Positions 5,358 to 58,340 of a stretch of DNA of 64,000 bases are shown here, piece after piece (the stretch's first letter is position 1; every line of letters begins with the position of its first letter). The translations under genes and the position numbers were made by a program. Origin of the DNA: Candidatus Danuiimicrobium aquiferis (GTDB lineage Bacteria; Omnitrophota; Omnitrophia; Omnitrophales; Danuiimicrobiaceae). The notes below the pieces were generated by a model, which saw nothing but the letters and a program-made list of their open reading frames with translations, was not told the DNA's origin and did no database searches. The stretch is taken from assembly GCA_001804285.1 (NCBI GenBank), contig MHFR01000008.1, positions 2,740 through 66,739 on the forward strand. The letters run 5' to 3'.

Positions 5358-6651
5358 TTATTTTCTTATGTCAATGGGAACGTAATCGGTTCGTTCCGGT
5401 CCCACATAAATTTGCCGGGGACGGCCGATTTTAGCCGGTTTCGACTCGCGCATTTCTTTCCAATGCGTAATCCATCCGGGCAGCCGCCCGATCGCAAACA
5501 TCACCGGAAACATATTGGTAGGAATCCCAATCGCTTTCAGCACAATCCCGCTATAGAAATCCACATTGGGATATAGATTACGCTTAATAAAATATTCTTC
5601 TCTCAGCGCCCGCTCTTCCAGTTTCATCGCAATTTCAAGAAGCGGATCCGTTCCTTTATGCTTCCGCAAAATCTTATGGCAGTACTCTTTAATAATTTTA
5701 GCTCTTGGATCATAGGTTTTGTAAATCCTGTGTCCAAAACCGGATAGCCGTTTCGACGAATTCGGAATCATTGCCTCGCTCAAATATGAATCAATGTTGC
5801 CGCCCGCTTGATGAATTTCTTCTAACATTTCCATCACATCCTGATTCGCTCCGCCGTGGATCGGTCCTGACAGCGCGGAAATTCCGGCGGCAATCGAAGC
5901 ATAAATATTGGCACGTGCACTGCCGACGAGGCGCACCGTTGACGTGCTGCAATTTTGCTCGTGGTCGGCATGGAGAATAAACAAAATATTGAGCGCCCGC
6001 TCCGCGTCCACATCGATGTTAAAATCCTCATACGGAAGCGAAAACATCATGTGAAGAAAATTCGCGCAATACTTCAAATCACGGCGCGGATAAATGAACG
6101 GCTGGCCGATCGAACGTTTGTAGGAATATGCGGCAATCGTCCGCACTTTCGCCATCAATTTAATCGCTGTTTGCTTATACACTTCATCGTCTTCAGCGGG
6201 ATCTTTCGGTGTCGGATGAAAACCGGACAGAGCACAGACAACCGACGACAGAATCACCATCGGATGAGTTGTACTTGGAAATCCGTAAAAGAAATGTCTT
6301 ACATCATCATGGAGCGCGGCATTTTCCGTCAATCCGGCCGAAAACCAATTAAGTTCAGCCTCGGTCGGCAGTTGTCCAAACAAAAGCAAATATGCCGTCT
6401 CTATAAACCGCGAATTTTCCGCCAATTGTTCCACCGGAATTCCGCGGTAACGCAGAATCCCTTTTTCTCCGTCGATATAACAAATCGCGCTTTGGCAGGA
6501 TCCTGTATTGCCAAAAGCAGGATCGTATGTAATATACGATGTCTTTGATCTTAACTCGCTCACATCAATTCCGCTGTCGCCTTCCGTCCCGTGAACGACC
6601 GGCAATTCATAGGCCTTCCCGTCAATTTTTAATTCAGCTTTGTCTGCCACA
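5358..6651 (-). CDS. gltA: Citrate synthase.
   Basis: The protein aligns along its length to type II citrate synthase (…GIPVEQLAE…HADHEQNCSTSTVRLVGSA…GFGHRIYK…DPRA…). The ORF track extends the N-terminus to 6788 through a palindromic repeat (translation PHPNPLPEGEGRGEG). A GTG at ~6649 preceded by AGAGG is the more likely start. Confidence 0.88.
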
Positions 6652-6681
6652 ATTATTACCTCTTCGTTAAAAGAATAACAC

Positions 6682-6730
6682 CCCTCACCCCTGCCCTCTC
6701 CCTCAGGGAGAGGGTTAGGGTGAGGGGCAA
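6682..6730. repeat. Palindromic repeat cccctcacccctgccctctccctcagggagagggttagggtgagggg.
   Basis: This is a perfect-ish inverted repeat. A second copy lies at 50395–50440. Confidence 0.7.
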
Positions 6731-6789
6731 ATTTATCTCGATACCATTTAAGGGCGATAATATACAGGAAAACAATTAATTGCGCCAAT

Positions 6790-6850: not shown

Positions 6851-9800
6851 TTAAGCCGCAACTTCAACGGCTTTCTTGACTACCTGGAACATCTCAAGGA
6901 TCGTCAGGATATCGCCTAAACGTTCTGGATTCAGCGATAAACTGAGGCGGGAACCCGTTCCGTCTACAAGGCGTATTAATAGATAATCATCCGTAAGCTT
7001 CCTGATAGTTTCGGCATCGGGCTTCCCGGCCGCGACAAGGCCGAAGGCAATCTGCGCTCGCAGATATTCAGCAGGGACAATTTGTAGAGAATTGTCGATC
7101 AAAAATCTGTGCGCCGCCGTTGCAAGATATCCATTAAATACACTCGCCATTCCCGCAACCTGCGCGGTATTGCTTCGCCCCTCAATCGAATTGAAATCAC
7201 CTTTCTGTCCGCTCTTCAGATACAGGCTTTGCGCCTTCTGAAGCAGCCGGTTTACCCAGCGCTGGTCTTTCCTGTAAGAACCACTGCGGACAACTTGATC
7301 AACAAAAGCTGCGTAATCATTCACTTCTCCAAAAAGAAAAACACGGCTGTTAAATTGCTGATTTATTTTTTCGCGGATGTTTTCAGGAATTTTAAAAGGC
7401 GCGGCGAAAACCATAACTTTATACGGATGATTCTCCACCATCGATTGAACGCCCTCAAGCACCGCCGACAGATCATCAACGTTCATCTCCGCCAGAACCG
7501 GATAATAATTCACGCCAAATTCTCCGTGCCGCACAAGAGCAATCCGCTCGAACATTTTAATTTGTTGCTCGGTATATTTTTTTCCAAGCACTTCAAATTC
7601 CTTTTGCGTCAAACCTTGTCCCACCGATTCTTCCGCAAATGCTTCCGGAATGACCTGTCGGTAAATTTCATTCGCCATTTTTCCTAAATGAAGTCCGGCG
7701 ATCCGCCTCACCGCCCGCGCCACGTCGACCTGCGAACGAATGGATTCCGTTTCGAGTTCCGGGTTTCGGGCGGCCTTGCGAACATCATTGCGAGATATCG
7801 GCCCAACCACGGCCAGAGCGAAAGGTTTGCGCGCTACGCCGCGCGATTCAGAACGGGACATTCCTGGCAATACTACTTGAATCAAGCGAAGATGTCGTAA
7901 CCTGTCTACCGATATCATATTCCGTGATATCGATGGATCTAACTGAGAAATATCCTCATCCACCATCACAAGCCACGCCCGAGAAAGTTCTGAAACAGGA
8001 ACAGCTTTTTTCGTCTTCGCACCTTCAAATTCGTACCGCTCAGCAACAGCCTTTGTCATTTCAAACAAGACTCCTAGACGGCCCGGCACTAAATCGGTAG
8101 CGTTTTCAATTGAATGAAACAGGTATTGAAAATTAGCCCATAACGTATTCTCCGAAGGATCATTTGTTTTAACAGCACCTGTTTCGAGAGCATCCTTTAA
8201 ACCATCTTCCGCTTTAACGCCCCGATAAAAGAAACCTCCCTCTATATAGTCATCTGTCCGTGTCCGGGGATCCGGGAAATAATCAAAGAAATTAAATGGC
8301 ACTGCCCCTCGGATTGCCGCTTCAGCATCCTCCAGAGACTTAACTTCCGGCTTATCAGAAAACAAATCAGGCATCCTCTGCGTCTTCGGCGTCTGCCGCA
8401 GCTCGGCCCGTCCGCCTTCGGCGGGAGTTGCAAGTTTCGAGTTTAAAGTTTGAAGTTTACTTCTTCCATCCAACTTCGAACTTCGGGCACTTTGCCGCCC
8501 TTTAGGGGTAACTTTAAACTTTAAACTTGATTCATTGCGCGCTTCGGCCCTTGGTGGAGACGAAGTCGACGACGTCATGGAACGCGCAGGTTTTGTTGCG
8601 AAAAATATTAATTGTTTTCCTCCTCTTGAATCTGTTGCTTCCATTATCTTGATATGTCGAAAGCCATTACGAAAGAAAAGCCCTTTTAATTTTTGTGGTG
8701 TATACATTTCATAAAATCGAAAACCAAGCCCCTCAGATTGTCCGCTTGGATTTTTTGTGTCTAACAGATGAATGCCTTCTCCCGATTTTACAAGTCCGAC
8801 ATAAATCCCTCTTACCTTAAGCGCTTCGAAAGCATTACGCACCACTAAATCTGCTCCATGTTGAGAATCAATAATAGGAATGTGATGAAGACTGGCCCAA
8901 TCACGGACAACATCAAATGAAGATTCCTTTTCTTCACTTAACGGATCTTCCATATCCATAGTTTGGAGCTTGATTTGAGGCGAAATAACGTGTTTACGCA
9001 AATACGCAATTGATTCTGCAGCATTATCAATAGCGGTAACAACGACATCGCCTCGTTTGCTAAACCAGCTCAAGTCCCGGAGTGATGGACCTCTTTCCAA
9101 AATTTGATATGGCGGCTTAAAAGCTGGTAGAACTTTTTTAGAATGAGATCTTCGCGCAAGCCGAATAAAAAGTTGCTTCAACGCTGTTAAGTCATAAGAT
9201 TCAAAACTCGTTCGGAGCTCCGTGAAAAAATGCGGATTTTTATTATACGTATTACGGGTCACTTCTTTTATTTGCTGCCAAAGTGATACTGCGCGTTTAA
9301 AGCGATCCATCTGCTGTAACGAGGAACTGCTGTTAAGAGTGTCCATCTCTAATACAAATTGTTTGTATAGGTCTTCAACGTTGCGCAGATCGGAGAGATG
9401 CCTCAATGCATCTCCCGAAGCAGTGCTTGAATCAGCCGAATTCAAGCGCATCTCGGAGCGCACCTGAGAACGGGTAATGGCTGCGGTAACCGTTTTTTCA
9501 ATTTCTGGATCGTGCTTTAACGCTGACAAATACGGCATAGTTATCTTGGCTTCCGAGGCAATTCTCATTTGAGTAAGATTGCGCTCGTTCTCCAATCTTT
9601 CAATGGCTTTCTTGAGGCGTTCGACGGCTGGCTTTGCCCTTTTGTTCTTTTTGATTCCATATTTTTTGAGATCACGAGGGTACGCGCTAAAATGATCCGA
9701 AAGACCCACTTGACTGACGCCAATAACTTCCGCCGCTTCCGTAATATTCAAACCTTGAAGCGCGCCCTTGCCATGTTCTTCGAGACGTTGCGGAATAAAA

Positions 9801-12800
9801 GCTTCCCAGGGTTGAATTCCATAAGTTTCAAAATCTTCCTCATGTTGTCTTAAATGAGAATTCAACCCTGACAAACTCACACCGATTTTTTCCGCCGCTT
9901 GTGAAACATTTAAACCGTCCAAAGTTTTCTTTCCGTGCTGGGCGAGAAGATCGGGAATCACAGGCTCCCGCGGTTGCACCCCGTATTTCACCATATCTTC
10001 AGAATAACTTTTAAAATGAAGCGAGAGGCCTGTTTGGCTAACTCCAATCAACTCTGCCGCTTGGGTAACATTTAAACCATTCAAACGTTTTTTCCCATAG
10101 CGCTTGAGAAGCGCGGGAATGTGTTTGGGTCTCTCGATTCCATAGCGGTCAAAATCACCCTGATTCTTTTCCAAATGCTGCCCCAAACCAGCGTGGCTAA
10201 CCTTCATCAACCGAGCTGCTTGCTGGATATTTAAACCACGGAGTCTTTCTTGACCAAATTCTTTTAACCGTTCCGGAATGATTGACAAAAAAGGTTTGAT
10301 ACCATACTTTTTAAGATCTTTTGGGTTTCGTTCAAGATGCTGCGCAAGACCGGAAGGGCTGCTCCCAATCAAATCAGCTGCTTCGGCAATATTGAGACCC
10401 TTTAAACGCTTTTTTCCAAAACGTCTCAGAAGTGCCGGAATTTCCGGTTCTTGAGGAACAATTCCATATCTTTTCAGGTCTTCAGGGTATCTCGTAAAAT
10501 GATCGTACAAACTCCCATAATTGACTTTGATGGTCTGTGCTGTCTGCCGAATATTCAAGCCCCGCAATTTTTCTTTCCCTTTCTTTTCCAGAAGATCAGG
10601 AATGAAAGCTTCAACTTTAACGATCCCAAACCTCTTAAAATTTTTCGGATGCCTTTCCAAATAATCAGCCAAACCTTGTTGAGACACCCCGATTTTTCGC
10701 GCGGCTTGAGAAACATTTAATCCCTTTAACCGTCTTTTGCCAAAATGCTGAAGTAATTGAGGAATTTGCGCCTCACCTTTGACAATTTCGTATTGTCGGG
10801 CGACCTTCGGATGAGTGCCAAAAAATCGTGAGACTGTGGCTGAGGTGACGCCAATTACTCCGGCAACTTGGTTATAACTAAGACCTTTCAATTTTTTTCT
10901 ATATTTTTCCAAAAGCCCGGGCACTGTTGACGGTTTCCACCGGACTTCGGAACGCACCGGAACTGTGTTTTGTTGAAAATAAATTTCTATTAGCGTTTCG
11001 GAAGAAACGATACGATTACGATCGATCACATCAAGCGGTTCTTTTTTGTCACCGTCATATAATATAATTCGCGCGATCTCCGTTCCATCGCGTTCGTGCA
11101 ATTTTAAAATATGGTCTAAAACGTCTCCAAGTTTCACATTCTCGCGTCCCTGATTGATCGAATACACGAATTCTCCTTTCAGCCCATGTATTTCCTGCCC
11201 CATCAAATCCGTTCCTATCTTTGCACGCACTTCGCTACGCGTACTATAAATTTCGTGCAGAGGAGTTTTGCCGGTCTTCATGTATTGAAGCGCTAATAAC
11301 AATAAATAATTGGGGTCATATCGAGGAGCTGAAAAAGCTAATGTAGCATTACCGGTCGTTCCATGCATGCCGGCAAATTTCATCTTCGCTTGGTCACCTA
11401 TTCCTAACCATCCCTTGTATTCCCTTTCTTCCATTTCTTTAACAATCAAATTCGGGTCTCGGGTATATACTGAAATTTTTACTTTTGGATGATCCGTTTC
11501 TCGATCGATCACATTATCAACATACACTTCTATTCCGTCACCGATCATGATCCAATTACCTTTTCTAAAACCCCATAAAAACGGATGCTCTGTTGGTACC
11601 ATGGAACCGATCGGGAGCTTAAATGAATATTTTGAAATTTCGCTTTCCGCTTCCCTCGCCTCAGAACGGTTGGCATAAGAAACAATTATTTTAAATAAAT
11701 CATCTACCCTGTCAGCAAATAAAGATTGCTGCTGTTCCTCGACAAACGTTTGCAAAAGTTTTCTGAGGGACTGCTCATCGCCTTCATCCGCAAGTCTGAG
11801 CCACTGCCCGACTCTCGAAGGATATAGGCCAGCTCTTGCTGAAACTGGCAAGTTTTCTTTAAGCTGCTTCGTGAGCCTTTCAAACCGTGTCGGGCTTTGT
11901 TTCGCAATCGTTTGAATTTTTGCAAGCCGCGAAACTTCCTCCGGACTCAACTCAGCGCCAAAGCCCTGCATCTGGCGAAGGTTCCGCACAAACACACCGT
12001 CGATCTGGAGATGGATCGGAATTGATTGATCGGGATCAAAAAAGTGCTCATCCGAAATAAGAAGATCCATATTGCTGTGCCGGAAATCTTCCGTAAAACC
12101 GAGACGATCGTAATCATAATGGGGATTAGTAAGTTGATCATAAAAATATCCTTTTATAAATTCGCGCCAAGGACTAAAGCCTGCCTTCCTAATCGTCTGC
12201 ATGAGTTGAGAATTTAAGTTCCGCGCAATCACTTGAAGCGCCATGGCAATTGTTTGATACCGATAGGCAAACGCCTGCTCACGCGTCAAATCTTTTGATT
12301 CCTGCCATCCCCCCAAATCATACCAAATCGTTTTTTCTTTCCCTGTCAAATCAATATCTACATTTCCCTGATGGGGTTGATTGGGGAAAAATCCGGCATC
12401 ATTGACTTGTCGCAATGCCCGCCCATACGCTTGATAAACACTCGCCAGTTTCTCTTGAGCTAATTTCCCGACCACCGCTTTTCCATCCACTTGCGCCATC
12501 TGAATACGCCACGTGCGCAACGCCTTACGCCGGGCCGCAGCCAAACTCTTTTGTTCGGCATCCGAAAGTGCACTCGGAATGGCTTCAGCCAATTCATCTA
12601 ATCGCTGATTAAACGCGGCGCCGAAACGCTCATGATGCCCTTTCCTCACAAATGAAATGAAAACACCCAACTCAAAATCATTTTTCTTGAGCTCCGGACT
12701 CGTATACCGGCCGTAAGCCAAAGCAATCGGCCCGCGCAAGCCGGCCGCCGGAAGCGTGTATCTTGCGCGAATGAATTTTTTTCTTGCCGTTTCCGCCCCA

Positions 12801-15800
12801 TGCCCTCCTTCTTGAGAAAAAAGAGGCGGACTTAAAACAGGCCGGCCTTCGCGGTCAAAAGAAATATGGATGCCGAGACTCATCACCTGATCCATTGACA
12901 TATCTCGGACATGAAACGCTGTCGTTCCCCAAGAAGCCCCGAAAAATCCTTGCCCAAAGTTTTCTTTCTTGAATAACACTCCCGTAATTTCCACGGCATC
13001 CATCTCTTCACCGTTGACAACAACCGGTTCCTTCAACGCTATGCGAATGGTCCGGCCTTCGGCCTTGTTTTCCGTTAATTCTTCGTACCCGATTCCCTTC
13101 CATTCATCCGGATAATAAGCAGAAGCTTTTTCGATTTGCGCTTGCAGTTCCGGTGTTAAAGCTTTCCATAGATCGGGAACGTAAGTCATTTCAAGGGGCC
13201 GTGAGCCTTGCCATTCGGCCGTTATTAATGGATCCGTGATGGGGTCAACCACATTTTTTCTTGCCGCCAAAAAGGCGAAGGTGTCTTCCGCCAGCCATTT
13301 CGCTATTTTTTCTCCAATCCCGCGGATTTTATTTTGGGGATCCTTCAGCCATTTCTTGAATTGATCCGCATGATCAAAACTCCGCTCGCCGATTTTCGCA
13401 ACCAATTCCTGAATGACTTGCTCTGATTTGACACCGCTCGCTTGAAACACTTGAGCAATTCTGGCTTTTATCACTTCATTCCAGTCAATCGCACCCGCCC
13501 AAGTTTTTTCCGCACTATCATTATTGAAGCGACCTTCGGACCGACTAAATAACTCTTTATATTTATCCACATTAATCGTCACATAATCATCATAATTGGC
13601 ACGACGACTATAAGTTTTGACATAGCCTTCCTCTTGCAAACGGCGCAAAAAGCCTTCCATTGAAGATGCCTGAAAAACCCATGAAGATATGTTACGAGTC
13701 AGAGCCAGATAGCCTACAAGCAATTTCATAATGCCCCTTCTTTGAGGCATACTAAGTGCTGAAATAACAGAAATTGATCCGGAACCATCAATTTTATAGC
13801 CGACAGAACCAACCACGTTACCATCCGATAGGTTCATCACCGCTAAATGAAACATTTCGCCGGTCCTGGAATGGTGAACAATGAGAAATTTGACAGAAGT
13901 ATTCAAAATTTGTCCCACCGCTTGTTTTAACCGCTGTTCAAGCTCCGCATTCTCTTCCAATTCCCGCATTTCGGAGCGGCGAGCATCGGAATTCTGTCTC
14001 GGTCTTTGTCCGGATAAATACTCATCAATTGAAACTCGCCTTAGTATTTTTTTCAAGCGGTTAAACGTATGCCTGATCGAGCCGATAGAGATACCGGTTC
14101 TTTCTGACAAAGCGTCCATGCTCGAGAGCACAAAACCTTGATCGAATTCTTCCAAAATTCGGTTTGCGACCCGTCGCTCTTTGACCGGGAAAGATTTAAT
14201 CGCTTCATCAACGATTATTTCCAGCATGAAACGCCGTTCCGTTTCGGACGCCCGAAAATCATCAATGGCGGCTATCAGAACCATTTTGCCGCCGATATTA
14301 GCCCAATCCTTCCTCAACCCTAATTGCGAAAGGGTCAGGAAATCTTTGTACGACCTTCTCTCTTTCACAAGACCAACTTCTTCATATTTGATCTTGTTAG
14401 CATTTAACGCGTTGTATATGACGAAACGATTTTCAACTAAACCTTCCGAGAAATCGACCACGTTTCTGACGGTGGGCGCAATGTCCGCCGGCACTTTAGA
14501 AACCAACATTTTAAGAAAACTTTTCCGCTGATCCTTGGTTTTCGGCAACACTCTTTCCCTTACCAAGCCGAGCTCTTCGTAATTCATATCGTGCGTATTC
14601 ATCGCCGATCGAATTTGCCGGGCAGTAACCGTTCCATTCGATTGATCCGCCACATTGTTCACCGTTGGCGGAAGCCCAGGAGGTAATTTCTCGATTAGTC
14701 TGCGCAAGAATTCTTTCCATTCTCCTGTAGCTCTGGCTGGGGGCAACGCTTTCTCCATCCCGACTTCCTGGAAAGAAATTGAATGAAAGACAATCGCTGC
14801 GCGAATTTGTTCAGGCGTATGTTTTCCGCCGGAAAAAGCTGCGACATTTCTCGCGGTTCGCTTCAATCCGGAAGGAATTTTCCCTGCAATAGCAGAAAGT
14901 TCGGCAATCCATTCTGAGCGCGACCTTTTCAAATCTGTTTCATTTATCATCCCGACTTCTTGAAAAGTAATTCCGTGGTAATATAAGGCGTGCCAAATTC
15001 CAACCCCCGTTACTTCCCGGCCCGAAATATCCGCAACATTACGCGTCGTAGGTAGAGTGCCGGCCGGTAATTCCGCGACCCTGGCTTTTAAATATGCAAT
15101 CCATTCCTCTCGAGACTTGAACTCCCTGGTACTACGGGCCATTCCAACAGTTCTGTAAGGAATATCGTGCTTCCACAATGCCATTGTAATTTGCCGCTCT
15201 GAAAGAAAACTTCCCCACACGCCGGCGAGAACTTCAGGTGTTGCCGCTCTCCAGTGAGGAAGAAGTGTCACAAGGCCTTTTAATAATCTGATCCACTCAT
15301 TACGATTTTTTTTCTTCTTTCTCAGCAGCTGTTTAAGCTCTTTCCCGATAGCGGGACTCACCCGTTTTTCTCCTCGCGTGTCTCTCATTCTCTTTGCGCG
15401 ATCAGCGAGGCCATAATTCTGGATGCGCTCCCAAACTGTTGTCATATTGACATGCATACGTTTTGCCATCTTTTCCAAATGAGCATGATATTTTGCAAGC
15501 AATTTTTTAAAACGCTGCAGTTGAGAACGGTAACGCGCGGCGTTTTTCTCAAGCCCGAATCGCCTGATTTGACTGACAATAGCAGAACTCTTAACTCCTC
15601 CTAAATCTTCCGAGACTAATTTTAGATTCGCGCCTCGTTTTCTTAAGAGCTGATTCAGCACACCTTTGGTCACCCATCCAGCTTGTCTTGCCCGCAGCTC
15701 GGCCCTTGGCGAAACACTTTGTACACGCCAAGGACTCTCGTTCGTTTCGATTGATGACTGATTGGAACTTTCTTTATTGTTACGAACTTCGGAGCGATGC

Positions 15801-18800
15801 CTCAATGCATCGCCCGAAACAGTCTCGGATTTAACCGAAATCCGAGGCGGCTCGGACATCGCAACGGTTGGTTGCGATGCCGGAGCAGTCCTTAACTCCG
15901 CTCGCGATTCGTCGTGAGCTTCGGCATGGCGTGCTTGACTCTGCATAATACCTGTGCTAAATTTACTACCAATATGAGTACGTTGGTCCGAAAATATATC
16001 AGTATCAATCCTGCTATCTGCCATGGAAAGCCCTGTTTTCGCGGTACCCGGATTCCTGTATCCTTGATCCTGCAAATGCTTGAGGGGGGCGACTCTGTCA
16101 GCGCCATTCTGCGCGGATATCCTTCCCTTTCCAAGAAAGCGATCCAGGCTGCGTTGGAGTTTGCCAGCGAAGTCATTGACAAAAACCGTTTGAGCGCCCG
16201 TGTCCTCGCTGCTTAAATTTCGAATTCTCGCCGACGAAATGATCCACCAAGATGTTATCCGGTTGTTGATCAGTTTAGGAAGCGACGTTATCAGAACTCC
16301 AAAAGGATTCAAAAATGGCCAGGTATTCCAACTCGCAAAAAAAGAAGCGAGAATCTTACTCACCCAAGATAAAGACTTTTCCGACAGTAAACGATATCCA
16401 CCCTCTCTGACTGCAGGAATCATTTGCTTGCGCGTTTTTCCGCCGACCATCGCCAATCTGCTATCCCATGTCAAGAAATTCATCCATAAAACAACACCGG
16501 CTGACATCAAAGGGGAACTGACCATCCTTTCATAAAACGCGATCCCACGCCGCGTTTCGGAACGGCTTTCGCGTTCCTGCTCCCTTTTTGGCTGACTGTC
16601 ACCTGTTCGCAATCCGGAGGCATCAAGAAAACCACCTTGACTGTGGTTGAAATACAGAGCGACATCACTCAGTTTGCCACTACTGACAATAAGCCTTAGC
16701 GCTTCAAACTGGCCATAAAGAAAGCGCACATTTTTTTTCAATGCCCGGTATTTTGCTGTACTGGGAAACCAAGCTAAAGTTGCTTCGATTATTCCAAGTG
16801 CGGTATCCAAAGCATGTCCGACCATAATATCTCCCGACAAAGAACGCTCCTGCCTTTTTCTGCCGATTTTTCTGCCAACGATCGGATAAACAACCTCGGA
16901 CAACGGTTTCTTAATCTTTTCCAAAGCCGTCATGAATTCGGAATCCAATTCGCCGACTTTTGCTGCGTCACCCGCGTATCTCTCAACAAGCGTTTCAAGT
17001 TGAGGCCGCAGCCGGTCAATTTGATCCAGCACTTCAAGAATCGCTTTTTCATCCTGTTCAAGTCCCTCAACCTTGCCTTGCCTCGCTTCGGATCTTGATG
17101 CGGTACCTTGACTAAAAACACCTGCCGTGATAAACTCCCGCAGAGGTAAAACGAATGGACCCTTTAATCCAAAAATATCTGATAATTGACTCCAAAATCC
17201 AACACGGAAAACCTTGCTTCCGGGGAACCCGGATTCCGGTTTATGCGGTACTTGAGCTCTTAGAGGGCGGGGTGAAACCGGAAGAGATTGTGGGCGAGAA
17301 TTATTATCCGAATCTAAGTCTTGAACATATCCGAATTGCATTGCGCTTTGCAGCCCAATGGGCGAAAAACCAAGAATACTTTCCTTTTGAACAAACAACC
17401 TGAGCTTTTGAATGAAATTCCTCATTGACGAGGACATTCCCCTCAAACTCCTCAAAACACTTCTAACGCTTGGCCATGACTGTGTCCGCGCAACACCGGC
17501 TTCATCGGATCTCGAAGTGGTTGAGCGAGCTGAAAAGGAAGAAAGAATTCTGATCACTCTGGACAAAGACTTCACTAATATCACGATATACCCGCCGACG
17601 AAATTTAATATCGTCCGAATCCAAATCCATCCTCCGTATGCCGATACGATTATCGAAGCATTCCAAAAACTCTTAAATTCCGTTCCAGCGAAGGACTTCC
17701 AAGGATTAATCATTCTCCAGCCCAAAGGCCATATCCGCGTCATTCCGTAAACACGTTCCCGCGGCACTTCTAATCTCTGATTTTCCCGCGCTTCGGCCCT
17801 TGAACTGACTGTCATCCTGAGGGAGTCCGAAGAACGACTCTCCGCCACTAAAGCGTGGGCGGATCCGGCCGCGCTGTTTGGCGGAGAAGGATCTCCGGTT
17901 ATTGTCTCTGTCCGTGGCTTCCCCCCGGGCAAGCCCGGGGCACCTTTCAAAATCTGGCCTCGCTTGGAATTTTCTCTTTCCATGCTCGGCACGCCCTTCG
18001 GGCGCCATTCACCCCCGGGCAAGCCCGGGGAGCTCAAAGCGGCGTTTAGATCCTTCGACTCGCTCCGCTCGCTCAGGATGACTCCGACCCTACGCAGCTC
18101 GGAGCGGATCCCTTCTTTGATCCAAATAGATCCATCCGTCGGCTTTCCATACGACTGGCTGTCATAGAATGCACTTTCTATCATGTTCATGTCGAAAAGC
18201 TGGTTCATCCGAACACGGTGATATCCTGGGAAATTGGAATCACCCCCTTGGAAAGAAATCACGATCGGCGGGAATACAGTCCCTTCAGAAAGTATCTGTC
18301 CAAAATTCAAATCAGCTTTTTGTAAATAATAAGTTGTCCGCTCTCCGAAAATATCTCTGAAATCACCTTTCTTTGAAAATTCACGTTCATGATAAACAAT
18401 CGTCCGATTTACCGGTGGCATCCGGTTGCCGTATGACCACTGAAAACGGATCTCATAGTCATTCGGATTTCCACCCTTAACCACTTCAATATTGGTTGCC
18501 CCCAACGCTTCTAATTCCCACAATATCGGGATTTTGGTGTTTCCGATTGCCCACAAAGCCGGATAATCAATATAACCTTTTACAAGTAAACTCGAGCGGT
18601 AGGCCTCCTTCAATTCCTTGACATCTTTCTCCTGCACATCAAAACCAAACGGCAACGCATCATAGAAATGCATTTCTTTTGCATCCGTCATCAAAAGAGG
18701 CGCGATCACATCTGCGCCAGAAAACGGATAACTTAAAACGCCACCATCAAATCCGTTCTTCTTCAATTCCGCGTGGATCTTCGCATAAGCCAAAGAGACC

Positions 18801-21800
18801 GCCCCTGAGATGAAACGGTTTTCTATAGCTGTCCTGTGAATGAGCAGTTCTTTCGGAAAACGTTTAGACTCAAACAATCTCCGTGCAGCCATATGAAATA
18901 GAACTGTTTGGAATTGAAAAGTTTTTTCAAGAAGAATTGCTCGATACACCTGCTGTTCAACGGTGAATGCTAAGCCCACTAAACGTGCTCTCTCTTCCGG
19001 TTGGTTTCTCAACTGTGGAAAAAATACTTTCAAAATCATATCATGCGAACTTTTTCCGATTGTAAGCACCAGTGGACCATCAGGAGTTAAAGGATCTGCT
19101 TTCGCTATATCAAGCCGCTCGCGAATCAATTCTTTGACAAAAATTCCTTCGGTTTCCAACCTTGTCACAATCACTTCATCTGGATTTGAAGGCATTCGCT
19201 TTCCACCTGTAGCGTCTTTAGTCCCAAGCCTGGGAAGAAGAAATACTTGAAATAAGCGAGCCCGGTCATCATCGTTCCCCGCCAAAAGATCGATTCTTTT
19301 CTTGGCTTGGACAAGAAAATCGATAACATCTTTAAGCGGATCTTCATGGTTAACTTCCTCTAAACGATCAACCCCCGGCGTCGCAAACGATTTTAAAATA
19401 TAGGCTGCCAGCTGTATTAGCTTTTGAACTGACGAGTCGTCATCGGCAATTTGATTTCTTTCCATCTGACCTTTCAAAATCTTTAACTGACTGCGTGAGA
19501 TTCCGTAAAGCTGCGTCTGCTGTCTGCTTTCTGCATCTAACAAAGCTTGTATAAAACGAGGACCTGCTTTTTGATCGCGTTTTAAAAGCCCTTTATCAGC
19601 CGCAGCGATCAAACGATCAGCTGTTTTGACAAGTTGAGGAACCGATTCTACCGTTTGCCCATCGAGCGAGCGCACTTCGGCACGTTTGGCTAACACATGG
19701 TCCGCCAAAGTACTCTTGCGCGTCTTGATTGATGCCTGGTTGGAACTATTGTCATTGTTACGAACTTCGGACCGTGTAACGAGTACGGCGCGTTTAAGCC
19801 ATTCGTCGAAATGTTTGAGCGCCTCGGCGGAGACAGCGAATCCATCTGTTAGAGCCTCGCCCGACAAAAGAATTTTATTCCGCCCGGACAAGTATGTCTC
19901 GGTAACTAACAATGAATCTAAGTAAGACTCAAATCCGTTCGGGTCTTCCCGGTATTCTTCGTCCCCATCATCATCAAACAACATCTGATTCATTTCCGTT
20001 TCGATTTCAGTCATCGCCTCATCAAGAATATCCATAAAAAGATTTAGATCAATCCGCGTTTGCTGAAGGCGTTCTTTTGCTTCTATTTTGATGGTGGCCG
20101 GAAGTTCTTCGTTATACCGAATACTAAATTCCCGCAGCAAGTCGGCGTTTGTTGCCAGCGAAATCCCGAAATGTTCTCGCTTTATTTCTTGCATGAAGCG
20201 CAACGCGTGTTTGGCTGCTAACTCAGAGATCAAATCTATCAGCAGCGGGCCTTGCTCAAGTTGTGCAGTCCCTTGCTCTTTTGTTGTCGGATAATCCACC
20301 AAATCCGTTCCACTTTTCCGCATTCGCTCATGAACTGAATAATTCCGGTCCAGCATTTTTCGATACGTCTTCTTCAACACTTCCTCCGCCGCATAGGGTG
20401 TTACCGTTTGAGAATGTGTTGCATAATAATCTGTAAGCACCTGGCTGAATCGAGCCCTGAAGCTCTGTTGATGCGATAGAACCCCACTGAATAGTGTGTC
20501 GTAAAGCCCCCGAACCTCGGCCCTGGCAGTGGCAGTCTTCTGCCCGCGCCACAACTGCCAGGACACTTGCGCGCCTGGTTGAATCTCCGCTTTTGTATTA
20601 TCATTATTGAAGCGCGCTTCGGCCCTCGCTCGGTTCCTTTGTGCATCGCGAGGACTCTTATTCGTCACAATTGATAACTGGTTGGAACTACTTTCAAGGT
20701 TACGAACTTCGGCCCGGGGAAAGATACGGGCCCGTTTGAATCGCTCTGCTTTATTCCCTCCCATTTGTTCGGGAGTAGGAGATGTCAGGCCCATCGATGT
20801 GGCTGTCAATTCGCCGTCAACGACAGCAAGGGCCCGCTGCTGATGGTCTGCCGCTTCTCTCGCCAATGAAGCGAATCGGCTACGATCTTTTTCACCAACA
20901 TCTTCTCCTGACGAAAAAAAGTTGGTGTCAAAATCTCCGGCCCACGGCGCCAGATAAAGCAAGACGTCGATTCCTATCTTGTATTGTTTTGAAATTTCCT
21001 TTAGCGGCTCTAAAAATATTGTCGTGGTATTTCGGTGGTGATGATGCCGGTCCTCCCAATGCGGAAGAATGACCGACCACGAAATGCCGTCCGCACGGCC
21101 CGATTCCAACGCCGCCCGGTGTTGGCGGTAAAACGTTTCGAGGCGCTTTTTCATGCGGGCCGTCGCATCCTGAATCGCCCAGTCCGGCGCCAACCCAATT
21201 CCCCGCTGATACGCGGCAACTTCTTCATCGAGCCACTTCACTCTGATTTTGCCGGGCAATCCTTCCCGCAACACCGCGGCTTCACCCGCTATTTCTTTCC
21301 GCCGGATGACACGCCGCATCAATTCTTCAATTTCAAAATTTACCGCCTCACCCACTTTCCAATTCTGAATGAAACGGAGAAGTTTTTCGGGATTCGCAAA
21401 ACAATTTAGTTTTTCTCTGATCACCGGATCGATCTGAGTTCCTTTTTTATCCAATTCCTGAAGCACTCTTTGATAAAATGCATGGACATACTGAATGGTG
21501 CGGTAGAAACGGCTGTTGGGCCGGTACACTTGCTTAAGCTTCCTCATCGCCCAGCGGATTTCCTCTTCTTTGAAATCTGCCACACCCGTGTGGCCCGATC
21601 CGGCCACCCAATTTTCGACCTTCATTCCTTGGCCTAACGCATCAATCATGGCAGCGGCCGCCGCGACCACATCGTCGTCAGGATGAGGAGAAGCTATCAT
21701 CAACGGAACGTCCTTGTTCAAACGAAGCTGAAAATTTTCCTGAGCGTTAACAATTTCACCATTCTCAATCCGTACCACAGTAAACGGATTTGCATATTCA

Positions 21801-24800
21801 ACGTCATCGCCCAGCGCTCCGTCCAGTCTTCCTCTGAGAGCCGCGTAACGCGCCATTTCTTCAAGAATTTTCAGAAAATCAGTCCGGCGCAATTGAGTGT
21901 CTTGACTTCCAAACCCACGCAGGGCTTTTGTAAATCCGGCGCGCGAAAGCGGAAAATAAAAGTTGGCGACATTTCCCATTTGGTAAGATTCATAATAAAG
22001 AACCGTCACCGGACCTGCGCGGGCATCCGCATACGATTGAATAAACTTCTGCACCCACGTATCGTTATGAAATCCGTCATACGGAGCCAGAATCAAATCC
22101 GGCTGAAAATTGCCAAACACTTCACCTGGCGTTTGTTTTAAATCAAAAGCAAACTTGCGGACTTTATTTTTCAATTCGGACGATTGAATGGCTTTGACAA
22201 ATTTCCCGGCCGTATGCGCCGAGCCGCCCGGTTCCAATTCAAGGAGAGCAATATTCAGATTGTGCGGCAACGGAAATTGCTGGACCCTAACGTCAATTTT
22301 CTTATTTGTTAAAATCACTCCTCCCTTCACCTCGTCAATCTTCCAATCAACGTTCTGTATTTCAGCACTACGGATTTCGGCCCTTGGCGAAACACTTTGT
22401 ACACGCCAAGGACTCTCGTTCGTTTCGATTGATGACTGATTGGAACTATCTTTATTGTTACGAACTTCGGAGCGATGCCTCAATGCATCTCCCTCAGCCA
22501 AAGGCTGATCCGCCTCTGGCGGAGAAGCAGTCCCGCGCAGTTCAGCGCGGCGCAGCTCTGCGCGGTTATGATCGCGACTTCCGCTCCCGGTATCCCGTCC
22601 CGGATAGCCGGGCTCTTGATTTTCTGTGGTTTCTGGCCCTGTCGTGCCGGGTGCCCCGGTAGTAGCTTTTTTAAGCAGCTGTCGCAATACTGAAACGGTA
22701 CTCCCGTCGCGGGGAACCAATCGGAGGGCTTCTCTCGCCTGTTGATCCATAATCCGGTCATATGCCTGCTGGGTTTTCCGCATCGTCTGGAAACCTTGGA
22801 AGTTGATGAGAGGCCTAAGCGCTGGAAGCACAAGCGCCATTCCAAAAGATGTCACGAACCATGGGAGAGAAAAAAGCAGCATTAATAGGAAACTGAGAAT
22901 CGGAATAACAATCAGAGCTGAACCCAAAAACACTTCCATTCTTAAGCTCTGCAAATACTCCCGTTTCGCATCATATCTGTTTTCTATTGCTTTTCCGATT
23001 TCATCCCCGGCAAGAAGTTCGCCGGCCTGGTCGCGACGCGCCGGATCGGAATGGACTTGAAGAACGACTTGCAAATACGCGAGTAAACTTTCCCATTCGT
23101 TCATTAAAAAGAGACGGTGGAACACATGATCAAAACCATGAGAGAAAATACTCGCAACAAAAAAGAAATATGCCGCAATCATCGACCAGAAGCCAAAAGC
23201 CACGAACGTATTTAGCGCCGGCATTAAAGGCATAATCGACCGGAACATATAATACATTCCATAAAATAGCACTCCCGTCCCAAACGCCCATTGGGTCAAT
23301 TTGGGGCTATAGGTCCGGAACCAATTGGCAATTCCCGTGAATTCATGCTCAAACCGCAAAGGCGCGCCATAATGAAAAGGGTCGGTTTCCCGCTGCGCTA
23401 AAATGTGTGACAACACATCCGGCGGCCATCCTAATTTGCCCAAACGCTCAATTTTGGTCCGCAAGGTTTTTGCATCGTCATCCTTCTTCAACCTATCGAG
23501 GACCGGCGCTTCTTCAACGATTTTTCGAACCTGAGCGGTCTTGTCTGCTTCACTGCCGGCGGATTGTATTAAATGGACTGCCCATTCACGCCACAAGATC
23601 TGACGCGCCCACAAATAGATGCCCCTCGTGGGAACAAGATCGTCCAGGTCATAACCCATCGACCGGGAATCAAATCTGACGCGGGCTTCCAGCGAAGAGC
23701 CATCGATGTCCATTGAATCGATAGGCGTCATGAGCAAGTTCTGAAGCTCCATCAAACGCTCATTTCTGTTTGTTTCGATGGGCATCGTAAACAAAACCGG
23801 ATAGGGCCAGCCGGTTTTCATTCTGGTCAAAGTTGTCGCGTGCTCAAGGCCCTGCTCGGTTGCGAGTTGCAATCCGGAGATCATCTTTAAGATCATATCT
23901 TTATGTTGGGCAAATAATTGTCTGAGCGGCGCAAGCGATGGCGAATGGTCCAAATCCGCATCGCCGGCTTCATCCCACTGAAGCGCCTCCAAAACATATT
24001 TTCTGGTTTCCGGCTCTGTCAACTCAGGGAAAATCGCGAGAAACATAACTGCAACTGCAATTTTTAAAATGTTCTTCCTTCCGCCTTCGGAATTCTTTTC
24101 GATTGCCTGAAAAGCAGCCGCCACTTGTCTATCAATCGTCTCGAGAAATATTTTATTCAAAGCGCTGCGATCATTCCTCACATGAAAAGCCATGAGCAGA
24201 AGATGAAAATAGACGTATGCATTCCTGATCTGCGGTGGAAGTTGATGCAATCCGTCGAGCATCTTCCGCCGAATGTCAGCATGCTCGTCTGAAGGCGCAA
24301 GCGCACTTACGAATAACAGAGGAAGAGATATCATGCTTTTTTCGGCCGCCGGATGATAAATCGAAAGGATGTCGTTCAGCTGATCGATTGCGTCTTGAGA
24401 AACCACATCCTGAACGAGCAAGTAATGCGCCGCTGCGAACAAAACTCCCATCGGATCATGTTCGGATAAGCCATACAGCTCAAACTGCTTCCGGAAAAGT
24501 TCGCGGTGTTGTTCGTCTAATCGAGCGGTAATGCCTCGCATCAAGTCCCTATATTGGCCTTCTGCAACCGTCTTTCCAGAGCCTGTCTTCATCACGGACT
24601 TCAGCTGTCTCAACTGTGAAACAATATCAAATGACTGTTCACTCCGCGCTTCGGAGCGGCCGTGAACCTCTGGCAATACAAGGCGAGGCATTTCGTCTGA
24701 CGTAAATACAGCAAATCCGCTTTCTTTCCCCGCCGGCGGCCGGATAGATCCTATAGATGGAAATGGCCGTAAAAATTTATCTTTCACGAGTTCTCTGGCG

Positions 24801-30800: not shown

Positions 30801-33800
30801 AAGATAAAATGTAAGGACGCTAATGCCTGCTTTTCGTTCGACAAATCTAAACCGAACCCCAATGGATTCAAGTCGATATCGTCAAACACCGCCATGAGCG
30901 CGACGGCCGGATCCATGTTGAAATACTTCTTCCGCCGCGGAAGAAGCGCATTCGCCAAACCCAAAACTTTGAAATGGCCAACTCCCGCTGTCCCTTTGCC
31001 GATTTTGTAAATCTCCTGCCTGACCGCTTCTCGTTCCGCTTCCGAAAGCTGTTTCCTCCGCTGATATTGCTTCATTAAAAGCGGAAACTCACGTTCAAGC
31101 CGGTGCCGAATCGACCGGCTCGCCTTGGTACGCGTTGTCCAATCTGGTTTGAAGCCATACGGGCTGAGGTGCAATTTCGGAAACGCCGTTATTAATGCTT
31201 TCTTATAATTTCCTTCAAGTGCCGGAACAGCTTTGCGTTGAACAAATGAGGTCAGCGGGGGTTTTCTGAAATAGTCTGAGCTAATGTCATAAATTTCATT
31301 TTTAAGACTCGCTATTGCTTCCTCATTCTCCAGTTGATCAAGGCGCTCATACCGTTCGACCATATCGGGAAATACCTGAGACAATGCGAAGCGGAGAGAT
31401 TCTTCAAGTTGATTTTCCAAATCCAAATGAAAACCAAGCGGATTCAGCTTCAGGTCGGAGAAAACAGCCATTAACACCTTTGCGTACTTGCCGTCAAAAT
31501 AAGAAACGGTGTTCTTATTGAGAACACCCGCAAGCCCCCAAACGCCAAAATGTTCGCTGTTAATTTTATAAATGTCGTCTTTTAATTCCCTCAGCTCATC
31601 TTCGGTTAATTCTCCGCGACGGTCATACCGTTCCATGATCGTTGGAATTTTTCGCCGCAATCTAAACTGGATTGCTTCCATCGTTTCTTCATACGATAAA
31701 TTAGGGCCAAAACCGACCGCATAGAAACCGAGCGGATTAAGTTTTAGATCGGGAAACGCCGCGACCAGCGCACTCTTGTGGGAACCTTCAAAGTACGGTG
31801 CTTTATCGACCAGGAGGGCTTGCTGCATCCCGGGCCAGCTTTCGAATTCCTGGCGCTGGATTTCGTAAATGTCATCTTCCAAAATCATCCTTTGATACGG
31901 TGTCAGTAGATTCAGTTTTTTGTAACGTTTCATAATATCCGGTCTCACCCGTTCAATGGCATGCTGGACATTCTTAATTCCCTGCGCCATTGTCGTTCCC
32001 AACCACTGATACGGTTGAGTCTGTCCACCTTTTGTCCTTTTATATTTTTCCCCCCGCACCTCGGAGCGATGCCTCAATGCATCGCCCGAAGCAGTCTCGG
32101 ATTTAACCGAAATCCGAGGCAGCTCGGCCCTCGATACACGCCTTTTGAAACGTATCGAGGACTCTCGTGCGCTTTCTATTGATAAACGCTTTAAACTATC
32201 TTCATCGTTGCGCACCTCGGAGCGGGCCGGACGTTTGGATTTTTTATCCGCAGCCGTTTTTTCGGCTTGTCTCACCCGAACGGCACGGCGGCGATGGAAT
32301 TCCAAAGCCACCGTCAAACCTGCAAAGGTAGCCACCCCAAAACCGACACCTGTCACAATCCGGCCCCACGAACGCCCGCATTTTTTTTCAGGCGGAGCAA
32401 TTCGTTCAAATTCGCCCCTCACCCAATCCGGTTGGCTTTCCAAATGATCACCGACCAAAGTTTCCAAAATTTCCGCGTTTGGTTTGCGCCGTTCTTCATC
32501 CGCTGTGTAATTGGGTGAGTTGGCAATATCAACCGCTTTGATTTGATTCCCAAATCGATCGGAAAACTTACCGATCTGCCCGATCAGTTGCGCATGCCGC
32601 GCCTCTTCTTGTGGCGATCGGTTAACAAGATAATGCGGCTGATTTCCTGTCGGCACATGAAGATTATTGGGTTCTACTGTGCCGGCAAAATCAGCATCCG
32701 CTGTGAGATAAATCTGCGCATCGCCAATCACTTTTGCAATGGCATCCAAATTGTCCGGATCCAAAATGTGGAGTGTGACCTTTCTTATATCCGCAAGCTC
32801 AATGGTATCGAGTTCCGATCCCGTAGGAGGGTTCTTATCCGGATTGGGTTTTATCAAAATTTTACCTTGTGCGGAACGTCCGATCTCTACGTAATAGTCT
32901 CTGTAAGAATAACGATACTTTTTGCTCGCCGTTATGAATGCCTCTTTTGGGACAACCCAGGCAATTTCTATCGGCTGATTTCCATCATCAAGAGTTCCGT
33001 GAGCAATAAGTAACCGTAGCCATTCGCCTTCGTCGATGTTGCTTGCCGTAACAATATCCAATTCGTCATTGTCCTTAACTCTTTCCAAACGCTCCTCAAT
33101 CCCGGCCATTTCCGTTCTTGGTGCATCCAGATTCGCCATATCATTATGAGCGTCCCAGGTGACCACTATTTTTTTCCGGCCCGGCTGAAAGATTTTTGGA
33201 TTTTTAAAATCTCTGGCCATATGCGCAAAACTCATATTATGCCCTTGGGCATACCGAATGGGAGCACCTGCTTTCGTTCTGGCCGGTTGCTGAAACAATT
33301 GATTATGAATTTCAAGTTCTTTGAAGATGGGGGCCGCTTGCACCTGCCATCTTAAATATTGACTCATTTCCGAATTCAGATCGACATGCGGCCCAGGCGT
33401 CCCGAACGGCTGAAACCAGGTTTGAAATTTTCCGTACATATACCACACCAACAATTCATTTCTCCACGCACCTTGCTCATCGCGAATGAAAGTTACTGAT
33501 TTGTGCATTTGCTTGAAAACGGTAAAATAGGTTTTAAGAAACTCGTTTTTTGAAACCGCTGGTTCCAAAGCCTGGTGCAAATCTGTTTCATATAAAAACT
33601 TGACCGCCCCATACCAGTCACTCATATCAAGCGCGTGAACAAAATTCTTCCAATGGATGTACTCGCTATGGCCCTCTCCGATTTGAACGCCCCCGGCACG
33701 AACCAACGATTCAATAAATTGGCCAATCGGTTTTCTTTCTTGGCGCATCCGCTCTCCGTAAGATTTGTGCTCTTCAGTAAGCTCCTCCGCGCTTTTCAAC

Positions 33801-46298: not shown

Positions 46299-47345
46299 CT
46301 ATATGGGATTGATTTCAAGGTGCTTTTCGGGAGTGATGGAAATTGACAATTCCCGTCCATCCCGCTTAATCAAAAAAGATCTCGGGGTACCAGGAACAAC
46401 CTTATCCGCATTTTGATAATAAGTAAGCCAACTCATTAAAGGTCTTCCCTCCTCAGATACCAGAATATCACCGACTCTGAGTCCGGCAACTTCTGCAGGA
46501 CCTTTTGGCAAAACCTCAGTCACCAAGAATGCGTTTTCAATCTTGCCATAGTCAGCTTTAAACCCGAAATAAGGGGTATCGGAAGGAAAATAAAATGCGT
46601 TAATGTCTAAATCAATGACATTTTTTTTCCTCTCAAGAGAGAACTTCACTTTTCGCGTAGAATTAATTCCGGCCAAGGTTTTGAAGAAATTATGGACATC
46701 AACGTCCACTCCATCTAATTTTAAAACAATATCACCATTCCGGAAGCCTTGCTCCGCCCCGAGGCCGCCGTCATCGACATTGGCTATATAATATTTAAAT
46801 GTTGTTTCGTCTAAATAAAAATCACAGCCAACCACAATATGGGATAAATTCGGATATTTTCTTTGAACCAATAGTGCGCTAACTAATCCGCCCAAACGAT
46901 TTTCAAATACACCTTTCGAACTATCATGCCATCCCTTCTTGACGAGATAACTTCTTCTTGCACGTTGAAAATCAGGAACTATCATCAGCTGGCTGAGATC
47001 TTCCGATTTCCGACTGACCTTAATCAATAGCGTGCAGAAACCCGAAAGTGCCCAACTAGATGTTTTGGCCCATGCGCGATACTCACTACTACGAACCGGA
47101 AATTCCATAGACGTGATGGCTCCTGTTTGTTGATCGCTTGTTTGAACAGGAATAAAATCGTTTTTCAGAATTTCGTCAATCACACCCCATAACTCGTCAT
47201 ACGTTGCCGGATAGGTAAATGTTTTCGATGACAAAGGTCCGCGCTTGAACGGATTGCTTAACGCAGATACTTCGGGGGACAATAGACATAAAAAAAGCAA
47301 GCTGCCCACCAAAATGGACAACTTGCTTTTTTTAAACATTTTCAT
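46299..47345 (-). CDS. Secreted protein with two PDZ domains.
   Basis: The signal peptide is MKMFKKSKLSILVGSLLFLCLLSPEVSA. The PDZ-like cores are GFRNGDIVLKLDGVDV and GLRVGDILVSEEGRPL. Confidence 0.65.
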   Translation of the reverse strand: MKMFKKSKLSILVGSLLFLCLLSPEVSALSNPFKRGPLSSKTFTYPATYDELWGVIDEILKNDFIPVQTSDQQTGAITSMEFPVRSSEYRAWAKTSSWALSGFCTLLIKVSRKSEDLSQLMIVPDFQRARRSYLVKKGWHDSSKGVFENRLGGLVSALLVQRKYPNLSHIVVGCDFYLDETTFKYYIANVDDGGLGAEQGFRNGDIVLKLDGVDVDVHNFFKTLAGINSTRKVKFSLERKKNVIDLDINAFYFPSDTPYFGFKADYGKIENAFLVTEVLPKGPAEVAGLRVGDILVSEEGRPLMSWLTYYQNADKVVPGTPRSFLIKRDGRELSISITPEKHLEINPI

Positions 47346-58139: not shown

Positions 58140-58340
58140 GATGACGTCGTTTAGCCCGGATTTCTCATCGTTAATAAGAAATTCCGCTCGTAAGAGCTGC
58201 GGTGCAAGGATGTTTGCGTCTTTGCGACGCAGGGCTTATCTTTTGCGCCCTGATTTACCAAGGGCGCAAAACTTTGGTCGAAACTAATTGCGCCCAAAGC
58301 GCCTTTCTCGTCGATTCACAAAATCGATGAGAAAGGCGGG
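58140..58340. repeat. About 200-bp hairpin-rich intergenic element (copy 1). Copy 2 is at 63770–63990.
   Basis: The shared blocks are …ttatcttttgcgc(c/g)c…gggcgc(gc)aaaactttgg… and the terminal hairpin tttctc(g/a)tcgatt-loop-aatcgatgagaaa. Confidence 0.6.

Follow-up and report, generated by a model that had tools for sequence, protein, structure and literature searches.

In a stretch of 64,000 nucleotides (nt) from the bacterium Candidatus Danuiimicrobium aquiferis (contig MHFR01000008.1), called here the window, two small operons are encoded on the plus strand (15974–16535 and 17155–17750), entirely inside a giant open reading frame (ORF) of the minus strand. Each consists of a DUF433 gene, a putative antitoxin, and a DUF5615 gene, a putative PIN-like toxin. 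In our opinion, they are probably inverted addiction operons, or cassettes, settled at the linkers of a modular giant ORF that is translated straight through them, with stop codons purged from the antisense phase in use and with a nesting that recurs in other genomes. The evidence comes from the antisense stop codons of the embedded genes, from the ranking of the two frames by constraint and from related loci in genomes and metagenomes.

All four genes gave Pfam matches (Table 1) above the curated cut-offs (23.6 bits for PF04255 and 23.8 bits for PF18480), and both DUF5615 proteins have secondary Mut7-C matches. Together with the complete lack of stops in the giant frame described below, this bears out the claim of the first-pass annotation, made from the sequence alone, that two antisense DUF433–DUF5615 pairs lie inside an open giant ORF. 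In both operons the genes are co-oriented and the antitoxin comes first; the genes of copy 1 overlap by 17 nt, and those of copy 2 are separated by 8 nt. A uniform protein identity of about 45% between the two modules had been supposed; this was incorrect, the measured values being 50% for DUF433 and 30% for DUF5615. The PIN-like acidic residues, N-terminal (I/A)DE(D/M) and central DxDF or DxDL, were found in all embedded DUF5615 proteins and are taken as catalytic from the PIN literature (PMC5499597). The embedded DUF433 genes keep the motif HGKPCFRGTRIP. Judging by these features, the gene pair is predicted to be a VapBC-like type II toxin–antitoxin system of the COG2442–COG4634 kind.

Known PIN–COG2442 (DUF433) systems include VapBC10 of Synechocystis (ssr2962/slr1767), an experimentally validated toxin–antitoxin system (PMC3834315), and the DUF433 antitoxin VapB45 of Mycobacterium tuberculosis; toxin activity is predicted for COG4634/Mut7-C-like PIN proteins that have DUF433 partners (PMC5499597). 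The window operons are similar to such systems in having a small DUF433 antitoxin first and a PIN-like protein second, a short gap or overlap between them and a putative promoter of their own (PMC3834315, PMC5499597). Unlike these free-standing operons, the operon of the window together with its promoter is wholly overlapped by an opposite ORF, and its codons and dipeptides are shaped accordingly.

A predicted sigma-70-like promoter precedes each operon (Table 1). The block cTTGAC–N17–(TG)nTAnnCT is kept in eight of nine aligned cassettes, while the surrounding sequence is unconserved; in both window cassettes and most relatives it lies 35–50 nt 5' of the DUF433 start, and a GGAG-like motif usually stands 3' of it. 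In cassette 2, an AGAGGT ribosome-binding-like motif is situated between the promoter-like site and the ATG at 17155. By these motifs and by the constraint described below, the cassettes look live and self-expressed.

Over positions 15690–18170, no stop was found in the 826 codons of the giant frame, and the other two minus frames contain 40 and 41 stops. To estimate how many antisense stops the embedded genes would carry by chance, the protein sequences were fixed and synonymous codons were redrawn from the codon usage of the window itself. In the giant phase, 4.0 stops were expected in DUF433-1 (P = 0.011), 4.5 in DUF5615-1 (P = 0.0008), 3.6 in DUF433-2 (P = 0.005) and 5.3 in DUF5615-2 (P < 0.0002), and none was observed in any of them; in the other two antisense phases of the four genes, stop counts were at expectation. 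When eight cassettes were pooled, 39.6 antisense stops were expected and 0 observed.

The means of this avoidance can be read from codon pairs. The codon before a TAN codon always has A or G in third position, and that before a CAN codon never has T, a rule kept in 10 of 10 contexts in DUF5615-2 and in 9 of 9 in DUF5615-1, own stop codons counted. The codons of DUF433-1 are in register with those of the giant frame, and TTA, CTA and TCA are not used in it. Giant-phase antisense stops are absent from each of 10 embedded DUF5615 genes, whereas 27 of 28 complete non-embedded homologues contain 1–12 of them, typically 2–5. The avoidance extends to the proteins, since [FYHNDC]-Y dipeptides, which make an antisense stop in the giant phase unavoidable, do not occur in the 10 embedded proteins and occur 22 times in 20 non-embedded ones. 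Thus, the dicodon pattern that had been noticed at first reading is exact and non-random, it differs from that of homologues outside giant ORFs, and the selection then suggested to hold the giant frame open is found at the level of codons as well as of dipeptides. The openness of the giant phase is selected through the choice of synonymous codons and dicodons and through the lack of stop-forcing dipeptides. The phase in question is also the one naturally lowest in antisense stops in the DUF5615 family, typically with 2–5, which makes a first capture plausible.

As to which of the two frames is constrained, cassette-to-cassette nucleotide identity is 52–71%, and the toxin–antitoxin frame is saturated with silent differences (0.62–0.85). 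For this reason strict dN/dS (the ratio of nonsynonymous to synonymous substitution rates) was not used, and only proportions and the ranking between frames are given; the same saturation indicates that the arrangement is old. For the toxin–antitoxin frame, replacement/silent ratios of 0.20–0.51 were obtained, below those of the giant frame in all 36 pairs, in agreement with the earlier view that conservation lies with the plus-strand genes. ORFs of 82 and 112 amino acids (aa) are intact, with lengths and motifs kept, in every embedded copy-2-type locus. The 833-aa giant-frame peptide over 15701–18199 gave no Pfam match, as expected from the first-pass annotation, which had seen no recognizable domain there. 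Selection on the amino acids of the giant frame over the cassettes was not detected, the frame having no domain and a low codon-usage score there and the silent sites of the toxin–antitoxin frame being saturated. It may be concluded that the toxin and antitoxin proteins are the products under purifying selection, and the giant frame is merely kept open, its peptide being a by-product.

Species-representative genomes and metagenomes were scanned with DUF5615-2, which yielded 46 loci, and the stop-free interval of the opposite strand around the DUF5615 gene was measured in each. Eight of ten further copy-2-type loci (at least 48% identity) are situated in huge open frames (Table 1), one has its antisense frame open over the cassette only (L029) and one is decayed (L011). 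Around homologues with identity of 46% or less, the antisense open stretches comprise just 21–221 codons. The architecture of an 82-aa DUF433 gene, an 8-nt gap and a 112-aa DUF5615 gene is common to the embedded copy-2-type loci L027, L028, L008, L030, L031, L009 and L032. The phase of DUF5615 relative to the open frame is identical in all embedded loci, those of copy 1 type included. Copy-1-type relatives (L058–L062, 57–65% identity to DUF5615-1) come from contigs of 577–824 nt only; in all five of them the giant phase contains no stop from end to end, against 1–15 in the other minus frames. The embedded genes of copy 2 type form one clade in a neighbour-joining tree, and copy 1 is its long-branch sister. 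Thus, the nesting is replicated in some 15 diverged cassettes, and the arrangement is old and recurrent.

Table 1. Features of the window discussed in the text and the largest antisense open frames around related DUF5615 genes
Feature	Positions	Strand	Particulars
Giant ORF	6851–46081	minus	13,076 aa, ATG start; enzyme-like and unknown modules joined by tag-bearing linkers
Left linker, hairpin-rich	15690–15913	minus	folding z-score −5.5; three R[AS]E.R tags starting at 15904, 15796 and 15706
Promoter-like site, cassette 1	15935–15963	plus	TTGACT–17 nt–TAAATT; consensus scan and upstream scoring
DUF433-1, putative antitoxin	15974–16216	plus	PF04255, 84 bits; likely ATG start, open back to GTG at 15914
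DUF5615-1, putative PIN-like toxin	16200–16535	plus	PF18480, 49 bits (49.4); GTG start
Inter-cassette module of the giant protein	16536–17154	minus	between RSEAR 17081–17095 and RSETR 16550–16564
Promoter-like site, cassette 2	17108–17136	plus	TTGACT–17 nt–TAAACT; consensus scan and upstream scoring
DUF433-2, putative antitoxin	17155–17403	plus	82 aa; PF04255, 66 bits (66.4)
DUF5615-2, putative PIN-like toxin	17412–17750	plus	112 aa; PF18480, 66 bits (65.7)
Right linker, hairpin-rich	17751–18170	minus	folding z-score −3.7; RAEAR 17786–17800, RSELR 18092–18106
Locus L027			66% identity to DUF5615-2; antisense open frame of at least 5086 codons
Locus L028			65% identity to DUF5615-2; antisense open frame of at least 6511 codons (whole locus)
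Locus L008			60% identity to DUF5615-2; antisense open frame of 2752 codons
Locus L037			58% identity to DUF5615-2; antisense open frame of 962 codons (nearly whole contig)
Locus L030			55% identity to DUF5615-2; antisense open frame of at least 3581 codons
Locus L031			53% identity to DUF5615-2; antisense open frame of at least 4585 codons
Locus L009			52% identity to DUF5615-2; antisense open frame of at least 6776 codons (whole locus)
Locus L032/L033			48% identity to DUF5615-2; antisense open frame of at least 3623 codons

A scan of the fetched loci with hidden Markov models revealed one cassette per embedded locus and two in the window only. A 1-kb metagenome contig with 60% guanine plus cytosine (L035, 119–1035) carries two tandem DUF433/DUF5615 modules, one toxin being truncated, and resembles the tandem layout of the window. 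The exact DUF5615-2 protein is recorded from two short contigs only, and in the long contigs that carry its gene the giant gene alone is called. Gene callers suppress embedded operons, and such operons are therefore systematically missing from annotations. Other antisense genes were looked for inside the giant ORF of the window: seven plus-strand ORFs of at least 120 aa gave no Pfam match, and neither did the plus frames of four regions with low codon scores of the giant frame, translated with stops masked.

The giant protein itself has Pfam matches to a GT5 starch synthase, an ABC1 kinase and an epimerase domain, weaker ones to PIG-L and a methyltransferase, and helix-turn-helix repeats; much of it is unannotated. 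About ten similar helix-turn-helix units of about 50 aa (…LKGLN(V/I)xQAAxxIGVS…), matching HTH_3 and related Pfam families, are encoded at 9700–11000 on the minus strand. The pentapeptide R[AS]E[VLAIMT]R occurs in 40 copies at module boundaries, for example, at 44314, 40078, 35689, 32224, 22564, 19774, 11668 and 8410. Its codons vary (CGN or AGR for arginine, TCN or AGY for serine), a sign that the tag is conserved as a peptide, which argues for translation of the giant ORF. This tag and related ones may be candidate processing sites of a polyprotein. Other giant ORFs of this type have recurring tags of their own, namely GARLA (L008), [GA]AR[LM]A (L031) and GFGA (L027). The tag of the window itself was also seen in the 3292-aa giant ORF of the Omnitrophota bin L011, in about seven copies counted by eye.

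Codon usage was scanned in six frames with stops scored as neutral, because with stop penalties the giant frame won everywhere and the result was uninformative. Scored in this way, the giant frame was the best one in 289 of 325 sliding windows. The longest exception covers 15.5–18.4 kb, where the score of the giant frame falls over the island formed by the two cassettes and the plus frames win over the DUF433 genes. A second region of poor giant-frame score, at 8400–9500, is rich in linkers (RAEAR, RAELR, RSEMR) and has no plus-strand Pfam domain.

The 620-nt stretch between the cassettes proved to be different from the rest of the island. The first-pass annotation had described it as a spacer across which the giant frame remains open. 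The openness was confirmed, but neutral filler it is not: the giant frame scores best by codon usage over approximately 16.6–17.05 kb, and the stretch is bracketed by RSEAR and RSETR. Normal codon usage and this bracketing identify it as a sense-coded module of the giant protein, one without a Pfam match.

The N-terminal region of about 550 aa (44426–46081, minus strand) is homologous across the giant ORFs of the window, L027, L008 and L031, with 21–25% identity. It has no Pfam match and, by eye, starts with a hydrophobic stretch like that of a signal peptide. The best-conserved part common to the giant ORFs is the antisense segment of the cassette, with 37–49% identity, and its position within the giant protein varies (around residues 633, 1137, 1645 and 9449). 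Orthologues of the giant protein lacking the island were sought with 2500 aa from around it, and no usable homologue was obtained, the single match having 28% identity over 11% of the query.

The flanks of the island are hairpin-rich, as had been reported at first reading; the folding z-scores are given in Table 1. The left linker has an inverted repeat at 15850–15886, and the right one contains the palindrome CCCCCGGGCAAGCCCGGGG twice and a 15-nt inverted repeat at 17811/18068. Scans of the window for Rfam families and tRNAs revealed nothing. The cassettes of the window are bracketed by the tags at 18106 and 17800, at 17095 and 16564, and at 15904, 15796 and 15706, and cassettes adjoin tags likewise in L008, L030, L031 and L037. 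Parts of the left linker are found again, with orientation and reading frame unchanged, at further linkers of the giant ORF (22377–22489, 32061–32127, 34335–34432, 35554–35608, 19727–19771 and 9390–9424); no copy was found in the window outside the giant ORF. The best pair, with 99% identity over 113 nt (15699–15811 and 22377–22489), flanks the island in frame at a distance of 6678 nt (3×2226). In L027, a 686-nt cassette is located between direct repeats of 166 nt with 98% identity and a spacing of 852 (3×284), and in L009 a cassette is located between direct repeats of 104 nt with 80% identity and a spacing of 993 (3×331). Such near-identical linkers, repeated directly and in frame, would allow recombination to delete or shuffle modules.

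The evidence for continuity of the giant frame comes from several assemblies. Scaffold_313 of the original Rifle assembly, to which the window corresponds, has the giant gene called with its full 13,076 aa. In at least six samples, independent MEGAHIT contigs begin at about 18051 and contain a partial gene of 3732 aa that ends with the stop at 6851, so the frame is open over the whole island there too. The upstream MEGAHIT contig stops at 17911 and shares an overlap of 140 nt (k−1) with the downstream contigs, which points to a branch of the assembly graph at the right-hand repeat. In the NCBI record MHFE01000018.1, the upstream part is called as a gene of 9377 aa; the next codon, 9378, reads TTG (17948–17950). 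A 9390-aa gene call was considered as a sign of a stop beside the island and rejected, being merely the end of a MEGAHIT contig. Two short contigs of another project match the window exactly as far as about 18046; beyond it they diverge and the frame is closed, and their sequence there is 94% similar to positions 58151–58275 of the window in reverse orientation. Breaks or branches at 17900–18060 were found in L001, L006, L007, L054 and L055 and may reflect variation between strains or a gap in the scaffold. The link to the upstream 9.4 thousand codons rests on the original scaffold and the k−1 overlap. In some strain, the giant gene may be split immediately upstream of the island; the nesting would be unaffected in such a case.

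The explanation that we regard as probable may be outlined as follows. The giant ORF would be translated straight through the cassettes. A stop in a cassette would truncate the giant protein and, through polarity, would probably halt transcription of the 11 kb downstream as well; at such a cost, only stop-free cassettes would be tolerated. The antisense peptide of about 200 aa per cassette would serve as a spacer between linker tags (R[AS]E.R here and GARLA-like ones in relatives). The cassettes themselves may act as addiction modules that guard a repeat-rich giant gene against recombinational deletion: loss of a cassette would free the stable PIN-like toxin, and deletion of the cassette with the surrounding segment would be penalized. 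Because direct repeats flank cassettes, insertion and excision could proceed by single crossover at the linkers, and the cassettes probably move between linkers by homologous recombination of the Campbell type. The anti-deletion function is proposed here by analogy with the promoter-bearing toxin–antitoxin cassettes of chromosomal integron arrays. A wider version is possible but more doubtful, namely that giant genes of these bacteria of the Planctomycetes–Verrucomicrobia–Chlamydiae (PVC) group might be cassette arrays within one ORF, with modules (the inverted toxin–antitoxin operons among them) swapped at linker repeats through homologous recombination, the product cut at lineage-specific tags such as R[AS]E.R and GARLA, and two co-evolved lineages of anti-deletion cassettes.

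The rival that survives best, which we find rather unlikely, regards the cassette as a purely selfish passenger with no benefit for the host. Being addictive, it would escape purging from giant genes only in stop-free copies and would spread between linkers by homologous recombination. The high conservation of the cassette segment relative to the N-terminal domain (37–49% vs 21–25%), its variable position and the long direct repeats in L027 and L009 fit such behaviour. Yet a cassette with its own promoter could live anywhere, and eight of ten copy-2-type loci are in huge open frames and five of five copy-1-type contigs are open. This reading overlaps with the addiction-module explanation and differs from it on host benefit alone, which is beyond the reach of sequence data.

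Much less probable is a regulatory antisense unit, in which transcription of the cassette would modulate the 39-kb giant transcript through interference or double-stranded RNA, or transcription of the giant gene would gate the cassette. The conserved predicted promoter does point against the direction of the giant gene, and the hairpin-rich flanks could serve as terminators or ribonuclease sites, but regulation alone needs no intact toxin and antitoxin proteins under purifying selection in 15 cassettes.

That the cassettes are relics, dead insertions whose plus-strand ORFs are open by chance in a locus where only the giant frame functions, is hardly credible. The lower score and GTG start of DUF5615-1 might suggest it, but every locus has full-length ORFs of constant size although silent sites have diverged to saturation, all 36 pairs show the lower replacement/silent ratio in the toxin–antitoxin frame, conservation extends to the acidic motifs (DE…, DxDF), HGKPCFRGTRIP and the promoter block, and the truly decayed copy of L011 looks quite different. 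An artefact of assembly or annotation, or a recent insertion luckily free of stops, is equally hard to believe: the branching of assemblies in the right-hand repeat, the 9377-aa NCBI call and the two short contigs that close the frame speak for it, but the absence of stops in 826 codons vs 40–41 in the sister frames, the 3732-aa open frame over the island in independent MEGAHIT assemblies, the occurrence of the nesting in unrelated assemblies and taxa and the randomization statistics for the four window genes and the eight cassettes speak against it. Accordingly, of the two possibilities left by the first-pass annotation, genuine nesting stands, being conserved in other loci with a fixed phase, and survival of a lucky insertion falls, except possibly as a remote origin.

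Several observations weigh against the addiction-module explanation. Residence inside a giant ORF is not absolute, as follows from two loci. In L029 (92–941, 58% identity), the antisense frame is open for 254 codons, over the cassette only; the locus represents a giant gene with a frameshift or else a cassette at the boundary of a gene. In L011 (9600–10350), the C-terminal half of a decayed copy-2-type DUF5615 is found at the 3' end of the giant ORF. DUF433-1 is in a phase different from that of the other DUF433 genes, and a single origin cannot therefore explain everything. The promoters are consensus matches only, and the assemblies disagree on continuity of the giant ORF across 17.9–18.05 kb. 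Finally, the anti-deletion role is an analogy, and a purely selfish cassette would leave the same signature in the sequence.

With regard to the surroundings of these two loci, the cassette of L029 is downstream of overlapping dockerin- and NHL-like ORFs of the same strand, and the remnant in L011 is beside two small overlapping ORFs, by eye perhaps another toxin–antitoxin pair.

A comparison with known systems helps to place these data. In the sedentary chromosomal integron arrays of Vibrio, self-expressed toxin–antitoxin cassettes are likewise dispersed among modules separated by hairpin repeats; toxin–antitoxin cassettes kill cells in which integron cassettes are excised too frequently, and penalizing the loss of segments has been proposed as their role in the array (PMC13108822). 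Unlike an integron, the 'array' of the window is a single, probably translated ORF in which a cassette must be free of antisense stops, and its movement would be homologous rather than site-specific. No integron integrase or attC was identified, the neighbouring ORFs not having been scanned for integrase and Rfam having no attC model.

The giant ORF resembles the giant genes ('Archaeovorins') of Omnitrophota and the PVC group in exceeding 10,000 codons and in combining many enzyme-like domains with large unannotated parts, and post-translational cleavage is suspected for Omnitrophota giant genes (bioRxiv 10.1101/2023.11.21.568195). The HEAT, SecA and peptidase domains typical of Archaeovorins were not found in the giant protein of the window (Pfam search for HEAT, SecA-like and C39/S8 peptidase domains, E ≤ 0.001). 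Opposite-strand genes are unmentioned in either preprint on giant genes.

Long antisense overlaps described earlier (957- and 1536-nt pairs of Pseudomonas aeruginosa and small ones of Escherichia coli O157:H7) also have a fully embedded antisense ORF and sequence signatures of selection on both genes (PMC8850804, PMC9927249, PMC7457138). There, the embedded gene is young, belongs to no family and arose by overprinting, whereas here the embedded genes are of old, widespread families, the mother frame is merely kept open, and the nesting is conserved across deeply diverged genomes. In the literature searched, no paper was found in which DUF433 is paired with DUF5615 or in which giant genes are said to contain toxin–antitoxin genes in antisense orientation.

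The present case is a long bacterial antisense overlap of about 600 nt between two protein-coding units, documented in about 15 diverged cassettes by signatures at the codon and amino-acid levels. It indicates that giant ORFs of this kind are subject to frame-specific and hence probably translational selection even where the sequence has no meaning for them, and it bears on the open question of whether such giant genes are translated as one unit. It also suggests how very long repeat-rich genes may escape recombinational decay. If the reading of giant genes as cassette arrays is true, long-lived and family-wide fully overlapping antisense coding would exist in bacteria.

As for the neighbourhood of the giant gene, a 348-aa ORF (46299–47345, minus strand) with faint PDZ matches lies directly upstream of it in every assembly of the population; its product could be a partner or processing factor. 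On the other side, a 476-aa citrate synthase ORF occupies 5358–6788. Over the 21 kb compared, an NCBI contig from this population is identical to the window except for 30 bp at 50595–50625 that are missing from it.

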